64,000 nucleotides of DNA from assembly GCF_044324785.1 (NCBI RefSeq), contig NZ_CP172127.1; one strand, given 5' to 3'. The translations under genes and the position numbers were made by a program. Of the stretch, positions 5,404-55,598 are shown piece by piece. Within the stretch, counting starts at the first letter, position 1, and the number at the start of each line of letters is the position of its first letter. This stretch comes from Escherichia coli (GTDB lineage: Bacteria > Pseudomonadota > Gammaproteobacteria > Enterobacterales > Enterobacteriaceae). The notes beneath the pieces are model-generated. The model made no database searches and was not told the origin of the DNA. It saw only the letters and a program-made list of their open reading frames with translations.

Positions 5404-8250
5404 TCAGAAAGTCACATTCAGCGTGGCCTGACCGTTATAGCCTTCGGCGCTGCTGCCGCTGACGCTGTGGGCATAACCGGCCTGAACGCCCAGGGTGATA
5501 TTTTCCCGGACACGGGCTTCCAGTCCGGCCTGCAGGTCCAGTGACGTGCCATTCTGGGACGGTGAGAACGTCATGTTACTGCCGGCGGCGGCTGTCCCCA
5601 TGCTCATGTCACCCCGGGAACTGAAGGTGCGGATAACAGAAGGCTGTACCCACCAGTTCACCGGCAGTTCACGCACACGGTGTTTTGCACTGTCGCGCAG
5701 GGTGTCACGGGATGAGGTGCCTTCACCAAAGCTCATATCGTTGTGGCTGCCCAGACGGAAGCCGGCACGCATATGTTGTGCACTGCCATGCCCGAACTTC
5801 ACATAACCGGCGTTATCCTGGCCGTCATCCAGGGAAAGTCCCTGCCAGGTGTACTGCAGTTGTGGTTCCAGCATCAGGTTGTCAGTGATACTGAAGGGCA
5901 GACCGGTTTCCAGTGAGCCCAGCCAGCCCCAGCCCCGGGCGCGGAAGTCGTTATTGTCCGATGACGCTTTCATGCTGTGGCGGGTTCCCTGTGCCATAAT
6001 GTCAGCCCACAGGCCGGAGGACGTGTGTACCAGATTCAGGTATCCGCCCAGGCTGCCGGCATCATCCCGGACCGTGCCGGCGCGGGAGCCGTCATCATCC
6101 TTAACATCAACGGAAGAATGGCCAGCAGCACTATATACCCCCGCGGTCACAGACATACCGGCAACCTCTGTTCTCAGCAGGTCACTCTCCAGACGGACGA
6201 AGCCATAGCTGCCGCTGCTTTCCGGCGTGGCCCCACGGGCAATACCGCCGTTGTTATCGTGACCGAGATGACCGCCCTGAATGCTGAGACGGACGCTGTT
6301 ATTTTCACCGTTTACACCGGTCTGATGGCTGCGGGAGCCTGCCAGAATCCGGTCATAGTCCATTGCCTGTGTCAGCATGGAGGCATACAGGGGGACTTCA
6401 GCACGATAAGCATTTTCACTGCGCAGGTACCAGTCTTCATCGCTGTCACGGTTCAGGGTGTAGTTAAAGGCACCGGCCTGAAGCGGGCGACTCAGGGCAA
6501 ACGCACCTTCTTCTGTGGTGGCACCATTCTGTGCATCCACAACCCGGATACCCTGTCCGGAAGTTGCCACCCCGAGGTTACTGTTTCCGACATTTGTGAA
6601 CGCAAGCCAGGTTTTGCCGGTTGCCTGACCACCATTAATCACCAGCTGGTCAGAGGCATTGCTGCCATCAAGGCGAACACGCATATTGATGGTGCCACCC
6701 TGACCGGTGAGGTTACTGGTGGTCAGTTTATGGAACGTTACCGGGGCGTCGCCTTTTGCAACAGCACGGCTCAGGACGGCATCCTGTGTCGTCTGATTAT
6801 CAAAGCGAATCTCCCCTGCGTTAACAATATCGCCGGTACTGACCACATCACCATTCAGTACCATGCTGGCGCCTTTACTGAGCTGTGTTCTGCCACTCAG
6901 ACTTCCCCCGGCAGCCAGCGTCAGTGTTCCACGATGTCCGACAGTGGTGTTGCCAGCCTGTCCCCCGGCATTAACCGTAAAGCTGCCGCCATTTTCCAGC
7001 AGCAGGCCGCTGGCCTGACCGGATATGCCATCAATACTGAACTTACCGCTGGCATTGGTCCCCTCAACAGTGGCACCACTGTCTGCAATCAGGGCACCAC
7101 CGGATGTCATGGTGACACCTGTCGCCTTACCACCGGCAGACACTGCCAGGGTACCGCCGTCATCCACCCGTGTTTTCTGCGCTGAATGACCCTCCAGTAC
7201 ATCCAGACGACCGCCGGACTCCAGAACAACACCGTCAGCCTTACCGTTTTCCACCGCGAAATTGCCCAGACGGTTGCTGCCGGTGACGGTTGCCGCCGTA
7301 CTGGTGACCAGTGCGCCTCCCTGCTTCAGGGTGACATTCGTGGCTGTACCACCGGCGTTCACCTGCAGTTTGCCTTTCTGGTTAACGGTGGTGAAATCCG
7401 CCAGACCACCTTCCTTGATAATCTGCCAGCCGTCACTGTTCACAACAGTGTCAGACGTTGTACCGCCGTTGTGTACATACTGGTTACCGCCATTCAGCGT
7501 GGTATCCAGTGCGTGGCCATGTACCGTCTGGTCGCCGCCGGCATAAACCACAGTGGTATTTGCTGTTCCTTCAACAGTCACAATCTGACGACCATTTTTA
7601 TTGATGGTGGTACGTACGGCATTTCCGCGAACAAACTGCCCGGTATCACCATTTTCTGCATCCGGTCCTCCTTCTGCGCCGGTATTCACAACGGTGTCTG
7701 TTGCCACTGCGCCGGGTTTGACGACCTGCCAGCCCTTATCATTAATGACGGTTCCTGTGGCTATCGCACCTTCATGCATCCACTGCTCGCCACCATTCAG
7801 CGTGGTGTTCAGTGCCAGTCCCTTCAGGCTTTGTCCGCCTCCTTCATTGATTATTGTGTCTGTAGCCTTTCCCCCGGCACCTACAAACTGGAGCCCGCCG
7901 CTGCTGATGGTGGTATTACTGGCTGTGCCGCCATCCTGTACCCATTGCCCGCCGGTATTGGCCTCGTTATCCGTCCCATACTCCAGCCCGGTACTGATGG
8001 TCATTCCGTTGGTCGTACCGAAGACAATCTGGTTGTCATGATTTGTCAGTGTTCCGCCGTTCACGGTTTCTCCCGCCTCTACAACCGTGTCAGCAGCCAG
8101 TGCCGGGACTGGCGTGACAGCAGCAAGAGACAGCGCAACCGCCACACCGGCGCGTTTTCCCCGTGAGCGGGCCAGTTCGGAAGCCACCACCAGGGTGCCC
8201 GTAATGTGATTCCATACCAGCCTGTAGCTGGTGTTCAGATGTCGTTTCAT
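5404..8250 (-). CDS. flu: Antigen 43 (Ag43) self-associating autotransporter adhesin
   Basis: Product from ATG at 8248-8250 reads MKRHLNTSYRLVWNHITGTLVVASELARSRGKRAGVAVALSLAAV... (Ag43 signal and passenger); repetitive beta-helix passenger and C-terminal beta-barrel ending ...ATLNVTF; AAGGA RBS. Confidence 0.9.
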   Translation of the reverse strand: MKRHLNTSYRLVWNHITGTLVVASELARSRGKRAGVAVALSLAAVTPVPALAADTVVEAGETVNGGTLTNHDNQIVFGTTNGMTISTGLEYGTDNEANTGGQWVQDGGTASNTTISSGGLQFVGAGGKATDTIINEGGGQSLKGLALNTTLNGGEQWMHEGAIATGTVINDKGWQVVKPGAVATDTVVNTGAEGGPDAENGDTGQFVRGNAVRTTINKNGRQIVTVEGTANTTVVYAGGDQTVHGHALDTTLNGGNQYVHNGGTTSDTVVNSDGWQIIKEGGLADFTTVNQKGKLQVNAGGTATNVTLKQGGALVTSTAATVTGSNRLGNFAVENGKADGVVLESGGRLDVLEGHSAQKTRVDDGGTLAVSAGGKATGVTMTSGGALIADSGATVEGTNASGKFSIDGISGQASGLLLENGGSFTVNAGGQAGNTTVGHRGTLTLAAGGSLSGRTQLSKGASMVLNGDVVSTGDIVNAGEIRFDNQTTQDAVLSRAVAKGDAPVTFHKLTTSNLTGQGGTINMRVRLDGSNASDQLVINGGQATGKTWLAFTNVGNSNLGVATSGQGIRVVDAQNGATTEEGAFALSRPLQAGAFNYTLNRDSDEDWYLRSENAYRAEVPLYASMLTQAMDYDRILAGSRSHQTGVNGENNSVRLSIQGGHLGHDNNGGIARGATPESSGSYGFVRLESDLLRTEVAGMSVTAGVYSAAGHSSVDVKDDDGSRAGTVRDDAGSLGGYLNLVHTSSGLWADIMAQGTRHSMKASSDNNDFRARGWGWLGSLETGLPFSITDNLMLEPQLQYTWQGLSLDDGQDNAGYVKFGHGSAQHMRAGFRLGSHNDMSFGEGTSSRDTLRDSAKHRVRELPVNWWVQPSVIRTFSSRGDMSMGTAAAGSNMTFSPSQNGTSLDLQAGLEARVRENITLGVQAGYAHSVSGSSAEGYNGQATLNVTF

Positions 8251-8459
8251 CAGCTTTTCCTTACAGAGGGTGAATAAAAAAGCCGGTACCCACAAATGTG
8301 GATACCGGCAGGTACAAAACAGCATGGTCAGATAAAGTGGTTTTTCCCGGACATAAATGCTTCCCCTCTCTCATCCGCCAGAGAAGTATCAGTCCGTTGT
8401 GTGCAATTCCGTTCTGCATGATGAAGAGATTCAGCTGCCTTTTCGCAGACCATTAACCA

Positions 8460-32039: not shown

Positions 32040-32199
32040 ACGCTAATTCCTGTTACTCTGGTATGCCATTCAGTATGCCATTAGTCTCTCACTTCACTAA
32101 GAATACATTAGATAACATCGGACAGAAAAAATTGTAATGCATTGTTTATAATAAGGTTATATAACACTCCCGGATTAAGTCAGATTTATTTCAGGCGGT

Positions 32200-32260
32200 C
32201 CCCCTCACCGCCATATTTAAAGAAAAGCTCGTACGAAAGTACGGGCTTTTTTTTCGCATA
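32200..32260 (+). repeat. att-type direct repeat copy 1: tRNA-Ser 3'-end fragment (CCCCCTCACCGCCA) plus terminator hairpin and T-run
   Basis: About 95% identical to copy 2 over ~58 bp; no tRNA body upstream. Confidence 0.7.
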
Positions 32261-32378
32261 TTGCACTCCAGGGGGGATGAGAAGCCCCGACCGGGGTTCG
32301 ACAACTGGCGCAGCCAGTTGGACAGACCACGAACGCAGTGAGTGGGCTGCCCGCAGGGCGAGCGAAGCGAGTCTATCC

Positions 32379-32436
32379 CCCCCTCACCGCCATATTTAAA
32401 GAAGAGCTCGTACGAAAGTACGAGTTTTTTTTCGCA
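32379..32436 (+). repeat. att-type direct repeat copy 2 (chromosome-proximal): last ~18 nt of a serW-type tRNA-Ser plus its terminator
   Basis: ATCCCCCCCTCACCGCCA followed by hairpin GCTCGTAC-GAAA-GTACGAG and T8; sequence upstream does not fold as or match a tRNA. Confidence 0.7.
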
Positions 32437-32610
32437 TTTTATCTGCCTGTACGGCAGTGAACTCAAATACTACACGTTTAGTCCGTTATTAATAAAGCAA
32501 AGCCATCTCATTTTCCTGCTACCACCCTTTTTTATCCTTACCTTCCCGCAGCACTAATTATCAACAACTTACCATCATCATCAAAAAAAGGGTCTGAACC
32601 TCCTCCACCC

Positions 32611-32650
32611 CATAAACAAAAAGTCCGTAACCTCTTTCGAGATTACGGAC
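32611..32650 (-). terminator. Rho-independent terminator downstream of clpA
   Basis: Hairpin GTCCGTAA...TTACGGAC (32623-32650) followed by T-run on the minus-strand transcript. Confidence 0.6.
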
Positions 32651-32675
32651 TTCACCAACCTACCTAACAATTAGA

Positions 32676-34952
32676 TTAATGCGCTGCTTCCGGTTTGTGC
32701 TTTTGCGCACTCTGGAATCCGTAAGTCAGCTCATTTTTCTCTTTATCCAGCGCGACGGTGACCTGACCGCCGTCCACCAGCGAACCAAACAGCAGTTCGT
32801 TGGCGAGCGGTTTTTTCAGGTTGTCCTGGATGACACGCGCCATCGGACGTGCGCCCATTGCCCGATCGTAACCTTTCTCGGCCAGCCAGTTACGCGCTTC
32901 CTGGCTCACTTCCAGAGAAACACCTTTCTGATCCAGCTGAACCTGCAACTCGACGATGAATTTATCCACCACCTGATGGATCACGTCGGTTGACAGATGA
33001 TCGAACCAAATAATGTTGTCGAGACGGTTACGAAACTCCGGCGTAAAGATCTTCTTGATCTCTTCCATCGCATCGGTGCTGTTATCCTGGTGGATAAGAC
33101 CAATCGATTTACGCTCAGTTTCCCGTACCCCGGCGTTGGTGGTCATCACCAATACCACGTTACGGAAGTCCGCTTTGCGTCCGTTGTTATCGGTCAGCGT
33201 ACCGTTGTCCATCACCTGCAACAGAATATTGAACACGTCCGGGTGCGCTTTCTCGATTTCGTCCAGCAGCAGCACCGCATGTGGATGCTTGATGACCGCA
33301 TCAGTCAGCAAACCGCCCTGATCAAAACCAACGTATCCCGGAGGCGCACCAATCAGACGGCTGACGGTATGGCGTTCCATATACTCGGACATATCAAAGC
33401 GCAGAAGCTCAATGCCCAAAGCTTTCGAAAGCTGTACCGTCACCTCTGTTTTCCCGACCCCGGTAGGGCCGGCAAACAGGAACGAACCGACCGGTTTATG
33501 TTCGTGACCTAAACCTGCACGCGCCATCTTAATGGCTTCAGTCAGCGCCTCAATGGCTTTATCCTGACCGAAGACCAGCATTTTCAGGCGATCGCCGAGG
33601 TTTTTCAGGGTATCGCGGTCACTCTGAGAAACACTCTTCTCTGGAATGCGCGCAATACGGGCCACCACGGACTCAATATCCGCCACATTAACGGTTTTCT
33701 TGCGTTTGCTTACCGGCATCAGGCGTGCGCGAGCGCCCGCTTCGTCGATAACGTCAATGGCTTTATCCGGCAGATGACGATCGTTAATGTATTTCACCGC
33801 CAGCTCTACCGCTGCACGCACCGCTTTTGCGGTATAACGCACGTCGTGGTGCGCTTCATACTTCGGTTTCAGGCCATTGATGATTTGAACAGTTTCTTCG
33901 ATCGACGGTTCAGTAATATCAATTTTCTGGAAGCGACGCGCCAGAGCACGGTCTTTCTCGAAAATGTTGCTGAACTCCTGATAGGTTGTCGAACCAATTA
34001 CGCGAATTTTACCGCTGGAGAGCAACGGTTTGATTAGGTTAGCCGCATCGACCTGGCCACCAGACGCTGCACCCGCACCGATAATGGTGTGGATCTCATC
34101 AATAAACAGGATGCTGTTAGTGTCCTGCTCCAGCTGCTTGAGCAACGCTTTAAAACGTTTTTCAAAGTCGCCGCGATATTTTGTGCCCGCTAACAGAGAA
34201 CCGATATCGAGAGAGTAAATCGTACAGTCAGCCATCACTTCCGGCACATCGCCCTGAACAATTCGCCAGGCAAGACCTTCCGCAATCGCGGTTTTACCGA
34301 CACCAGATTCCCCCACCAGCAGCGGGTTGTTTTTACGGCGACGGCAGAGAACCTGAATAGCACGCTCCAGCTCCTTCTCACGACCAATCAGTGGGTCGAT
34401 TCCGCCCACACGCGCAAGCTGATTCAGGTTCGTCGTGAAATTCTCCATACGTTCCTCCCCACCAGCTTGTTCTTCGCTGTTTGGCTGGCTGCCAGGATCA
34501 GAAGACTGTGTCGGCTCGTCTTTACGCGTGCCATGAGAGATAAAGTTCACCACATCGAGACGGCTGACTTCATGTTTACGCAACAGATATGCCGCCTGCG
34601 ACTCCTGTTCGCTAAAGATAGCGACCAGAACGTTTGCACCGGTAACCTCATTGCGACCGGAGGACTGGACATGGAAGACCGCACGTTGCAGTACACGCTG
34701 AAAACTCAGCGTCGGCTGTGTGTCGCGCTCCTCTTCACTGGCAGGCAGAACGGGTGTGGTTTGTTCAATAAAGGCTTCCAGTTCCTGACGGAGCGCAACC
34801 AAATCCACAGAACACGCTTCCAGCGCCTCCCGGGCAGATGGGTTACTGAGCAGCGCCAGTAACAAGTGCTCGACGGTCATAAACTCATGACGGTGCTCGC
34901 GCGCTCTGGCGAAAGCCATATTTAAACTGAGTTCCAGTTCTTGATTGAGCAT
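32676..34952 (-). CDS. clpA: ATP-dependent Clp protease ATP-binding subunit ClpA
   Basis: 758-aa product from [24 protein letters not shown]... with two AAA+ modules; the track ORF has a 5-codon upstream extension. Confidence 0.97.
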
Positions 34953-34982
34953 AGGCACCTCCCCCAATTTTTATGCCTGCAT

Positions 34983-48883: not shown

Positions 48884-49885
48884 ATGATTGATTTACGCAG
48901 TGATACCGTTACCCGACCGAGCCGCGCCATGCTCGAAGCAATGATGGCCACCCCGGTTGGGGACGACGTTTACGGAGACGACCCTACCGTTAATGCTCTG
49001 CAGGACTATGCGGCAGAGCTTTCCGGTAAAGAAGCCGCCATTTTTCTGCCTACCGGCACTCAGGCCAACCTGGTCGCTCTGCTCAGTCACTGCGAACGCG
49101 GCGAAGAGTATATCGTCGGTCAGGCCGCGCATAATTATCTGTTTGAAGCCGGTGGCGCAGCGGTGCTGGGCAGTATTCAACCGCAACCTATCGACGCGGC
49201 TGCTGACGGTACGCTACCGCTGGATAAAGTGGCGATGAAAATCAAACCCGACGATATCCATTTCGCCCGCACCAAATTACTCAGTCTGGAAAACACCCAC
49301 AACGGCAAAGTGTTGCCGCGTGAATACCTTAAAGATGCATGGGAATTTACCCGCGAGCGCAATCTGGCGCTGCATGTGGACGGTGCGCGCATCTTTAATG
49401 CCGTGGTGGCTTACGGCTGCGAACTAAAAGAGATCACGCAATATTGTGATTCATTCACCATTTGTCTGTCGAAAGGTCTTGGTACGCCAGTCGGTTCGTT
49501 ACTGGTCGGTAAGCGTGACTACATTAAACGTGCAATTCGCTGGCGGAAAATGACAGGGGGCGGGATGCGCCAGTCCGGCATTCTGGCAGCCGCCGGGATG
49601 TATGCGCTGAAAAATAACGTCGCACGCTTGCAGGAAGATCATGACAATGCCGCCTGGATGGCGGAGCAGTTGCGTGAAGCAGGCGCGGATGTGATGCGTC
49701 AGGACACCAATATGCTGTTTGTTCGCGTCGGGGAAGAAAATGCTGCCGCGTTAGGCGAATACATGAAAGCGAGAAACGTGCTGATTAACGCCTCGCCGAT
49801 TGTCCGCCTGGTGACGCATCTCGACGTCTCGCGCGAGCAACTAGCTGAAGTCGCCGCCCACTGGCGCGCATTCCTGGCGCGTTAA
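48884..49885 (+). CDS. ltaE: Low-specificity L-threonine aldolase LtaE
   Basis: 333 aa [42 protein letters not shown]... Confidence 0.95.
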
Positions 49886-53795: not shown

Positions 53796-55598
53796 TTAAT
53801 GAGCGGAAAGAGTCAACTTATACTGTAAATTATTCCAAAATTTTTCCGCATCTTGTGGCTGAGGAACATACCTCTGGATTGCTTTTTGATCGACCTCGGC
53901 AAAACAAGAAAGTAATAAGATCTCAATGTTTTTGTCATTAATATATGCAAAAATCATTCTTGCAAACTCGTATATAAACGCCCGTTCTTGAGCGTTTAAT
54001 AGTTTAATACAATATTTATTCTTAAGAGAGAAAAGAATTTCAAGGAAAGCATCCGCTGCAACCTTCACGTTATTCCCCGCATTCATATTAAATATATCTC
54101 TTACGCAGATAGAATACAGTGAAAGTAAACAGCCATACAAATAATCATTTATTAATTCTTTTGTCCATTTTACTGGCAACCAGGGTTTTATCTTGACACC
54201 ATGCATACTACAGTCATGAAAAAGACATTTACTGAAATTAACTCTTATCATATCAACATTGAAAAAATTGCAGTTAATAAATTTTAAAGAATGAGTATTT
54301 ACGTTGTTAATTTTAACAGATCTAAACGAAATATTTTTGAATACACTGTTTATTACATTGCTATTTGTTATTTTAACATTACCTAAACTGCCGTTTTCAA
54401 AGCAACACTTCTTCAATATACTTTCATTCACAACAGTATGTAATAAATGGAGATTATTTATGTTTTGCTTTATTAATGCCACGTCATTAAAATAACTATA
54501 TTTAATAAAGCAACCATTATTGAGTAGTGTTTTAAGATTGACTAAATTACTTGCATCTTCACGTACCATCGTGGCAATTGAAACAGGCAGAGACATGAGA
54601 ACTTCTTCATTCACCATCAAGTGAATCATGCATTGCGTTCCCTTTGTCATATCCACACTTACGCTACAAATATCGTGGTAATGCGAAGAGTGCATTTCAG
54701 GAAAAAGATTAAACACCGTATCTTGAAAGGCACTAAATCGTGTTAATAAATCCTGATAATGAACAGGTTTTGTTTCAAAATTATCATCAGCAAATCCAAG
54801 CACTATTGCATGCTCTACATTTAACGCAGTTTCAAATGATTCTTCTTCTGTAAAATCATTATTTAAAACCTCACCTGACGTATTTTCACTGTCATAAAAA
54901 GTACTCATCAATGCGATATTGTTTGTTACAGAGTCTTTTTCGATATTCTCACTAATTGCATATCGCCTGCTATAATCATAAAAATGAATAAACGCGTCCT
55001 TTATAAAGGATATATATTGTTCTTTGTTAAAGTCAATACGACTGTATAATTTTTCAAAAATCACATTCGCAATCTTACTACCAATGGTATGCCTGTATAA
55101 TAATGGGTGCGATTCAATCGTAAAATGCTTGTCTAAGTGATGTTGTAATTTATTCTCATAGTCCAGTGGGAAAAGAAACTTTTGTCTTTCAAGTTTCCCA
55201 TTCAATATATTACGTATTCCAATGGTGATTCTTTCATTACCCGTTTTTATTTCAACTTCGTTATCTTCTGTTTTACCCAAATATTTTTTAACATCAGTCT
55301 CGAAAGCATTAGTAAAAAATGCATTAAATTGATAAATCGCTGATGGAATATTTTCCGCGAGCAACACATCATTTTTTATGATATCACTGTCAGCATTTAT
55401 TGCTAATATCAGATGCAAGTAGATGGTGTCCCATGTAGACAACTCATCCTTACGACTGGAATTTAATATCGCGAAAAATTCCCTCAGTGAATCCAGAAAA
55501 TTATCACTTTGATTCAGTTGTGTACCTGGAAATGATAATACTTGATCAGATATATTGTTTATCATATTAAAAATCACCCAAGAAAAACGATAATCCAC
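53796..55598 (-). CDS. Pentapeptide-repeat protein, 600 aa, AT-rich; possibly EspX/PipB2-like type III effector family (tentative)
   Basis: GTG start with GAGGA RBS 5 nt upstream; about 15 consecutive pentapeptide repeats (CCFEN GSLGN VKITN SNVIN SVFKN ISFRS VKINN VNTHS LKFIN CNFFN VDMIR VNFSK CLFHD CSMHG VKIKP) around residues 390-465; gene absent from this position in K-12 as recalled. Confidence 0.65.
   Translation of the reverse strand: MDYRFSWVIFNMINNISDQVLSFPGTQLNQSDNFLDSLREFFAILNSSRKDELSTWDTIYLHLILAINADSDIIKNDVLLAENIPSAIYQFNAFFTNAFETDVKKYLGKTEDNEVEIKTGNERITIGIRNILNGKLERQKFLFPLDYENKLQHHLDKHFTIESHPLLYRHTIGSKIANVIFEKLYSRIDFNKEQYISFIKDAFIHFYDYSRRYAISENIEKDSVTNNIALMSTFYDSENTSGEVLNNDFTEEESFETALNVEHAIVLGFADDNFETKPVHYQDLLTRFSAFQDTVFNLFPEMHSSHYHDICSVSVDMTKGTQCMIHLMVNEEVLMSLPVSIATMVREDASNLVNLKTLLNNGCFIKYSYFNDVALIKQNINNLHLLHTVVNESILKKCCFENGSLGNVKITNSNVINSVFKNISFRSVKINNVNTHSLKFINCNFFNVDMIRVNFSKCLFHDCSMHGVKIKPWLPVKWTKELINDYLYGCLLSLYSICVRDIFNMNAGNNVKVAADAFLEILFSLKNKYCIKLLNAQERAFIYEFARMIFAYINDKNIEILLLSCFAEVDQKAIQRYVPQPQDAEKFWNNLQYKLTLSAH

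Follow-up and report, generated by a model that had tools for sequence, protein, structure and literature searches.

The interval 32200-32440 of the 64-kb Escherichia coli window (the whole stretch of DNA analysed) lies at the junction of a genomic island with the chromosome and carries the same tRNA-Ser 3' end twice. This raises the question of whether both copies are att sites, the second one left behind by serial or tandem integration or by a local duplication as the original prediction suggested, or whether one of them is of another kind. The two copies form a direct repeat (32200-32253 versus 32379-32432; 54 nt, 94% identity, starts 179 bp apart), which reaches ~32262 and ~32440 if one T-run indel (a one-base difference) is allowed and is far above chance expectation for a 240-bp interval. 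Both copies start with CCCCCTCACCGCCA, the 3' end of tRNA-Ser(GGA), and the match to the tRNA extends further in the 5' direction in copy 2, where 32374-32392 (TATCCCCCCCTCACCGCCA) corresponds to the last nucleotides of serW at 18 of 19 positions. ARAGORN found no tRNA gene in the entire 64-kb window, in agreement with the earlier statement that neither copy is preceded by a tRNA body. A segment of ~58 bp had been said to occur twice in direct orientation, separated by 118 bp of unique sequence; the direct duplication stood (54 nt, 94%), but the spacer (~116-118 bp) is not unique and matches the Rfam family RtT. We consider it highly probable that the two "att-like" copies represent the attR, in serW, of a ~32.6-kb island with a P4-type integrase plus one native RtT unit. 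What is present is an ordinary island junction with an element of a known type, an RtT repeat, beside it.

On the island side, the junction is flanked by the gene of a P4-like tyrosine recombinase of 402 aa (30831..32039, minus strand, taken from the ORF list; NCBIfam PRK09692 integrase domain, E 2.9e-54), which is transcribed away from the att site and whose orthologs in SMS-3-5 and M159-1 are annotated as tyrosine-type recombinase/integrase. The island-side arm of attR (P arm, 32040..32199) includes the region upstream of int and ends with the last island-specific base at 32199; M159-1 and SMS-3-5, which bear the island, have an identical arm, and island-free strains lack it. The adjoining attR core CCCCCTCACCGCCA (32200..32213, plus strand) comprises the last 14 nt of serW, constitutes copy 1 and is found as a direct repeat at both ends of the SMS-3-5 island. 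It is followed by the native serW terminator/spacer (32214..32262, plus strand), which is chromosomal and does not belong to the island, with a core stem at 32227-32246 and a U8 tract at 32247-32254. Folding of this copy-1 terminator (-20.3 kcal/mol, z -6.35) clearly shows a strong hairpin with U8; the terminator scan missed it, probably because the U-run was counted into the stem. The RtT element of the Ser type (32256..32392, plus strand) is a full-length match to Rfam RF00391, its 5' arm GGGGGGAT pairing with ATCCCCCC at the 3' side, and its tRNA-like 3' end TATCCCCCCCTCACCGCCA (32374..32392, plus strand) constitutes copy 2. A second copy of the terminator/spacer (32393..32440, plus strand; terminator-like site at 32399-32432) closes the partial last repeat unit. 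It folds into a strong hairpin with U8 as well (-18.2 kcal/mol, z -5.81), and the homology between the two copies stops at ~32440.

Directly behind the second terminator copy, the chromosomal flank contains a solitary degenerate type I-F CRISPR repeat (GTTCACTGCCGTACAGGCAGATAAAATG, 32435..32462, minus strand; Rfam CRISPR-DR4, 29.7 bits, E 4e-4). This repeat is a remnant of a clpA-side array, belongs to the native flank and lies outside the RtT repeat; at the same position, a pair of repeats with one spacer is found in O145 RM12581 and M159-1, and "CRISPR" is annotated there in TK3889. The core-chromosome flank continues with clpA (32676..34952, minus strand; ORF 32676-34967, stop codon at 32676), which is convergent with serW, and clpA (2277 nt) is annotated under every match. 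Weak Rfam hits to MicC, Thr_leader, Leu_leader and STnc320 (32153-32286 and 32362-32431) were far below the gathering scores and were rejected, since the terminator hairpin accounts for them. Equally rejected was the presence of a tRNA or pseudo-tRNA within the spacer: ARAGORN found none, and the RtT body shares with serW just the T-arm-like piece GGGGTTCGA. PADLOC and NCBIfam scans of the adjacent island ORFs yielded nothing bearing on the repeat.

The opposite end of the island was examined by comparison with SMS-3-5, whose serW island is 99.98-99.99% identical to window positions 1-32259 except for a ~9-kb IS-rich segment that is missing from the window. In SMS-3-5, an intact serW lies at the far end of the island beside infA; at this attL, serW is followed by the island's own, different terminator (GATTATAAGCGCATGTTATTGTTTAACATGCGC...), and at the integrase end the island is followed by CCCCCTCACCGCCA and the chromosomal terminator. 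The two ends share an exact 14-nt direct repeat (attL at 7449-7462 inside serW and attR at 49070-49083, coordinates of the SMS-3-5 locus), so that the matching att copy postulated for the distal island end, CCCCCTCACCGCCA, was indeed found there within the intact serW. Because the window contains neither attL nor serW, the left junction is inferred from SMS-3-5, and synteny with this strain would place serW ~420-510 bp left of window position 1, consistent with the expectation that the intact tRNA lies beyond the window at the distal island end. On the chromosomal side, homology to the island-free chromosomes of O145 RM12581 and EC0585 starts exactly at 32200, and serW of both strains is contiguous with the sequence from 32200, i.e. 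they represent precise empty sites. The junction is therefore placed at 32199/32200; copy 1 represents the attR core, and the sequence behind it is native chromosome. With an integrase gene adjacent to the junction, empty sites in island-free strains and the core repeated at the other end (attL via SMS-3-5), the assignment of copy 1 as the attR formed upon island entry into serW was corroborated. The distance from int to clpA is 179 bp shorter in SMS-3-5 than in the window, and SMS-3-5 therefore lacks the RtT unit. Its clpA flank is just 97.0% identical to that of the window, whereas the island is near-identical, which fits a scenario in which the same island would have entered serW of chromosomes with different backgrounds, RtT being present in one and absent from the other.

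Several features of the island and of the core region were recorded alongside. At 11152/11153, the window lacks ~9 kb of SMS-3-5 sequence (IS1, glycosyltransferase, pyruvyl transferase and IS256/IS5/IS3 fragments), and this break cuts the 3' end of a type I hsdM (9758-11167) beside an IS903-like ORF. The low-GC island block at 11209-20093 (40-44%) encodes glycosyltransferases, a UDP-galactopyranose mutase and an O-antigen-type ABC exporter; this polysaccharide cluster rides on a CP4-like island together with Ag43 (5404-8325) and a cbtA/yeeU toxin-antitoxin module. An ORF with a PrimPol/archaeo-eukaryotic primase domain (23852-24877, minus strand; PADLOC PrimPol, E 3.9e-128) has a counterpart in SMS-3-5 that is annotated as a frameshifted 'TOTE conflict system' primase-domain gene. 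In the core region, a 600-aa ORF (53796-55598, minus strand) is located in a sharply AT-rich stretch (GC 0.31); it had no PADLOC hit, and the single similarity found for it was weak and partial, to the Hailong effector HalA (E 1.9e-5, 24 bits).

The spacer between the two copies is assigned to the RtT family, as the Ser version of the 178-bp tyrT repeat. Rfam RtT RF00391 matched 32256-32392 over model positions 1-130 of 130 with 43.9 bits (E 8.4e-7; gathering score 45). The orthologous RtT copies at serW and serX score 46.3 bits, pass the gathering score of 45 and carry the PGAP annotation 'RtT sRNA', which the segment has in many E. coli genomes; the window element falls just below 45 bits because of two point differences from these orthologs. 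RtT elements are positioned ~60 nt behind a tRNA gene and share its orientation, and the RtT pattern of O145 begins 62 nt past serW; this ~60-nt spacing persists in the window when measured from the displaced serW 3' end at 32213. The last ~19 nt of the tRNA recur at the end of the unit (TATCCCCCCCTCACCGCCA compared to AATCCCCCCCTCACCGCCA of serW), and the period of ~178 bp is retained, with 179 bp here compared to 178 bp at tyrT and 181 bp at serX in K-12. The conserved structure is likewise present, with the closing helix GGGGGGAU/AUCCCCCC and hairpins in the MFE fold.

An RtT-borne tRNA 3' end could still act as a working secondary attB or as a decoy for serW-targeting integrases, and copy 2 does contain the full 14-nt core, four further tRNA bases and the same downstream terminator. 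Insertion at this copy predicts a junction between the RtT 3' end and the left arm of the island, and 5426 E. coli genomes were searched with a chimeric query composed of the RtT 3' part, the core and the island left arm (one island family; megablast with a 28-nt exact word). The junction was found in 0/5426 genomes, and copy 2 is therefore unused as an att site by this island. The best 25 chimera matches listed all begin at the common tRNA 3' end, under an annotated tRNA-Ser. The layout of the window recurred in 11 Pantoea-type prophage contigs (viral contig scan, IMG/VR), the phage being located at the first copy in each, in front of an array of 1-5 RtT units. With no junction at an RtT-borne copy in either set, and with one island family and a 28-nt megablast word defining the E. 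coli search, we regard a role of copy 2 as secondary attB as very unlikely. Nor does copy 2 behave as one of two tandem att sites, as it is neither flanked by an element nor missing from island-free chromosomes. In these Pantoea-type prophage contigs (~45 kb), the phage end carries the 3' part of tRNA-Ser as attR, and the RtT units behind it measure ~166 bp each; where the sequence continues, the last unit stops after GGGGTTCG, beside a small HTH-like gene on the opposite strand.

The unit in the window is composed of a spacer, which is an intrinsic and possibly bidirectional terminator, a body and a segment mimicking the tRNA 3' end. The 5' part of the body comprises the G-rich arm GGGGGGAT, which pairs with the tRNA-like ATCCCCCC, then GAGAAG and a hairpin CCCC-GACC-GGGG, whose 3' strand runs into GGGGTTCGA, a segment resembling the 5' strand of the T-stem plus the T loop. 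The 3' part comprises GC-rich hairpins, (A/T)AT, the 3' strand of the T-stem, the 3' strand of the acceptor and CCA. Among 40 Ser-type units, compensatory double changes were detected at four pairs of one hairpin helix, and alignment-based consensus folding of the Ser-type units resolved part of the structure. The closing arms are complementary at 9/9 positions within each type (Tyr, GGGAAGGAT/ATCCTTCCC; Ser, GGGGGGGAT/ATCCCCCCC), and the Pantoea variants match accordingly. It is even less probable than attB usage that the unit matters as a gene for a small protein. A 40-codon ORF (MRSPDRGSTTGAASWTDHERSEWAARRASEASLSPPHRHI, followed by a stop; 32277-32399, plus strand) does begin at the conserved ATGAGAAG, and a 29-codon tpr ORF is annotated at the equivalent place of the K-12 tyrT RtT. 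However, the motif reads GGGTGAGAA, without a start codon, in the copies of O145 serW, the tyrT-tyrV spacer, Pseudoalteromonas and Paenibacillaceae; conservation tracks base-paired helices with compensatory changes and not codons, and a ribosome-binding site with suitable spacing is absent.

The RtT RNA of tyrT is an established read-through product of the tRNA promoter that is excised by tRNA-processing enzymes. In the same manner, Ser-type RtT RNA would arise from read-through off the tRNA promoter and would be freed by tRNA-processing enzymes, given the resemblance of its closing helix and 3' tail to the T-arm and the acceptor end. Read-through into RtT is argued to be inefficient because an intrinsic terminator is present in every spacer. 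No sigma-70-like promoter was predicted on the plus strand between 31900 and 32800, and a promoter of RtT's own was rejected since none was predicted on that strand nearby. As 32.6 kb of island part the element from the serW promoter and no plus-strand promoter is predicted, the RtT of this strain is probably poorly expressed or silent, judging from the sequence.

The original prediction had named, as evidence that would refute it, a duplicated segment native to strains without the island, and such evidence was obtained: island-free O145:H28 RM12581 has the gene order aat, infA, serW, RtT sRNA, clpA, and its alignment to the window runs from an intact serW unbroken into copy 1, the 118-bp segment with the RtT body, then copy 2, and on into the flank of clpA. 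The duplication belongs to the core chromosome itself. Because island-free strains share it, the duplication is ordinary and not the scar of a second integration. In island-free EC0585, serW is followed by a single copy and no RtT; with no unit in EC0585 and one in RM12581, the serW locus is polymorphic for 0/1 unit. A query running from the RtT body through copy 2 into the unique flank on the clpA side was matched with a coverage of 80% or more in ~903/5426 complete E. coli genomes, and the 179-bp unit stands beside clpA in 211 genomes with this integrase arm. The RtT body alone is present in 3550/5426 complete genomes, at a median of 2 and a maximum of 11 places per genome. In K-12 MG1655, serX encodes a tRNA identical in sequence to that of serW, and behind it stand three full units of 181 bp and part of a fourth, every unit ending in AATCCCCCCCTCACCGCCA plus the same terminator. 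Of the four RtT elements in the K-12 tyrT-tyrV locus, one separates the two tRNA genes and the other three follow tyrV as 178-bp units. At serW, there are zero RtT units in K-12 and SMS-3-5 and one in the window and in O145, i.e. the number of RtT units differs between strains and loci. The exact combination of island, RtT and a single CRISPR repeat was found in none of the 5426 complete E. coli genomes; the best matches to 32041-32700 in this set were 96.6-98.9% identical, with none at >=99%, and the island is 100% identical in many. For the chromosomal backbone, the best matches reached 97-98.5% identity.

These data bear on the two explanations that treat copy 2 as a product of recent events. 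In the first, two elements would have entered serW successively and the second would have been lost save for ~118 bp, leaving two att copies. Two direct copies of a tRNA 3' end flanking a short segment beside an integrase gene do suggest such a history, and the T-arm-like GGGGTTCGA in the RtT body would suit an ancient integration scar as the remote origin of the RtT family. For this locus, however, the explanation is refuted by the identical arrangement with an intact serW in island-free strains. In addition, the 118-bp segment belongs to a family of conserved, structured RNAs that occurs behind tRNA genes of many genera, the repeat contains the chromosomal terminator whereas the left arm of the island has a different one, and no element-derived sequence lies beside copy 2; we judge serial integration to be highly improbable, more so than a small-protein gene. 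Least probable of all is a recent local duplication of attR in this strain, for example by replication slippage after island entry: the copies are 94% identical and near each other, but population data refute this reading, as the 179-bp unit is found beside clpA in ~903 genomes, 211 with the integrase arm, and in island-free strains too, and the intervening segment is a distinct RNA element and no duplicate of local sequence.

Under the preferred reading of one attR plus one native RtT unit, the ancestral order would have been serW, terminator, RtT body, copy of the last ~19 nt of serW, second terminator copy and clpA. The island would have recombined inside the 14-nt core CCCCCTCACCGCCA of the genuine serW. 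Integration would have shifted the serW body ~32.6 kb to the left, just beyond the window, and what remained beside clpA would have been the native 3' end of serW as copy 1, the terminator of this gene and the RtT unit with copy 2 at its end. The number of units may shift via unequal homologous recombination between the ~60-bp repeats composed of tRNA 3' end and terminator. The unpaired bases of the RtT 3' tail and the terminator, which is outside the RNA structure, are still identical to the tRNA copy. Because these unpaired acceptor bases and the terminator also match, we infer that recombination keeps the copies alike. Unequal crossing-over alone cannot account for how a locus acquired its first unit.

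The architecture is long known from tyrT, which Egan and Landy in 1978 and Rossi et al. in 1981 reportedly described as '178 bp repeated 3.14 times'; each of the 178-bp units contains 19 bp of the tRNA-Tyr 3' end. Bosl and Kersten are said to have described rtT RNA in 1991. As one RtT unit follows the serW 3' end, the window holds one unit of this tyrT architecture. The window unit resembles the tyrT-tyrV RtT (rttR) in its length (179 versus 178 bp), in the succession of tRNA 3' end, ~45-60-nt spacer, body and copy of the last 19 nt, in the motifs GGRTGAGAAS, CGAC, GGTTCG and CCCGNAGGG and in the closing helix formed by the 5' arm and the tRNA-like 3' end. In contrast to tyrT-tyrV, the 3' end and the closing helix of the window unit follow tRNA-Ser(GGA) and not tRNA-Tyr, its spacer is a strong intrinsic terminator, one unit is present, and a 32.6-kb island lies between this unit and the tRNA. 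The Rfam scores also differ, with a borderline 43.9-46.3 bits for the Ser type versus 133-137 bits for tyrT. With the K-12 serX array, the window unit shares 95.4% identity in the body, the same tRNA-like end and an almost unchanged terminator, but serX carries three full 181-bp units plus a partial fourth versus none or one at serW.

P4-type islands are known at serW/serX in O157 (OI-43/OI-48, SpLE1). Like other P4-type (CP4-57-like) tRNA islands, the island in the window has a textbook attR in copy 1, with the core at both ends, an adjacent integrase and an empty site. The locus is unlike these islands in that copy 2 is no att site of this island and in that the long homology past the core is chromosomal and not attP-derived. 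Rudd reportedly described in 1999 tRNA-linked repeats in intergenic regions of E. coli, which are short copies of tRNA 3' ends downstream of tRNA genes, and this class is said to mix att remnants of prophages with RtT ends. Seen against these tRNA-linked repeats, the window locus has one att remnant and one RtT end side by side.

RtT-type modules were also searched in other bacteria with a pattern scan of one genome per species, which returned at least 120 DNA stretches and, together with other loci and the window, at least 193 pattern matches. Among the matches listed, the tRNA upstream on the same strand was Tyr(GUA) for at least 97, Ser(GGA) for at least 65, Ser(GCU) for at least 8 (Pseudoalteromonas) and Arg(UCU) for at least 1 (a metagenome-assembled Paenibacillaceae genome); for at least 22 of those listed there was none, owing to a locus edge or displacement by an island. 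The hosts are Enterobacterales, Pseudoalteromonas, a marine metagenome contig and the Paenibacillaceae genome, with units of 133-181 bp. First RtT units begin 59-68 nt after Tyr(GUA), Ser(GGA) and Ser(GCU) tRNA genes (at least 120 loci), and the 3' 19 nt of most complete units show 0-1 mismatch to the upstream tRNA (at least 120 loci). These 3' ends track sequence variants of the tRNA, as exemplified by CCCCCGCCACCA and CCTTCTCCCACCACCA among the matches listed. The common core reads GGRUGAGAAS ... CGAC ... GGUUCG ... CCCGNAGGG ... GAGUNAU, and the spacer is an intrinsic terminator in the Ser and Arg types. The Rfam RtT model gave 55 bits for the Pantoea type and 44.6 bits for the Pseudoalteromonas type and, at E of 0.001 or better, did not detect Paenibacillaceae-type units. 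The Paenibacillaceae layout is like that of the window: tRNA-Arg(UCU) is followed by a terminator and a body, and then by an exact repeat of its 3' end with an identical terminator behind it (1600-1830 in the coordinates of that locus, minus strand). A metagenome contig carries tRNA-Arg(UCU) followed by four RtT-like units of 133 bp (10368-11010), compared to one in the Paenibacillaceae genome. In Pseudoalteromonas genomes and in metagenome contigs with the same tRNA arrangement, RtT-like units follow tRNA-Ser(GCU); the 5' arm of this type, GAGAAGGTGGG, is complementary to the tRNA-Ser(GCU) 3' end CCCTCCTTCTC, and several terminal units are truncated.

Full-text literature searches on RtT returned almost nothing besides one mobilome-sequencing preprint, the results being diluted by Rett-syndrome papers. 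This preprint reports a raised extrachromosomal signal over the tyrT/rttR region, and older literature cited in it suggests an effect of RtT on the stringent response; ppGpp and the stringent response have reportedly been measured for the tyrT rtT RNA.

For the island, the analysis amounts to a correction: its boundary is at 32199/32200 with a single attR, and copy 2 is neither evidence of a lost element nor an island delimiter. Pipelines that predict islands and att sites should be aware that copies of tRNA 3' ends behind Tyr and Ser tRNA genes are often RtT ends. For the strain, an RtT unit parted from the tRNA promoter by an island offers a natural comparison for the question of whether RtT-Ser needs co-transcription with serW. 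The occurrence of RtT-type modules after different tRNAs in distant bacteria is the sole part with some discovery value. It is possible, though we put this forward tentatively and as the less likely case, that RtT units are widespread satellites of tRNA genes, in which a core is bracketed by two copies of the host-tRNA 3' end, both with the same spacer behind them, and the closing helix is re-tuned to the host tRNA, and not products of passive duplication. If this were true, RtT units may propagate actively onto tRNA 3' ends, for example as excised one-unit circles re-entering by recombination, or, alternatively, the mimicry of tRNA ends may serve an RNA function in processing, CCA-end recognition or stringent-response signalling.
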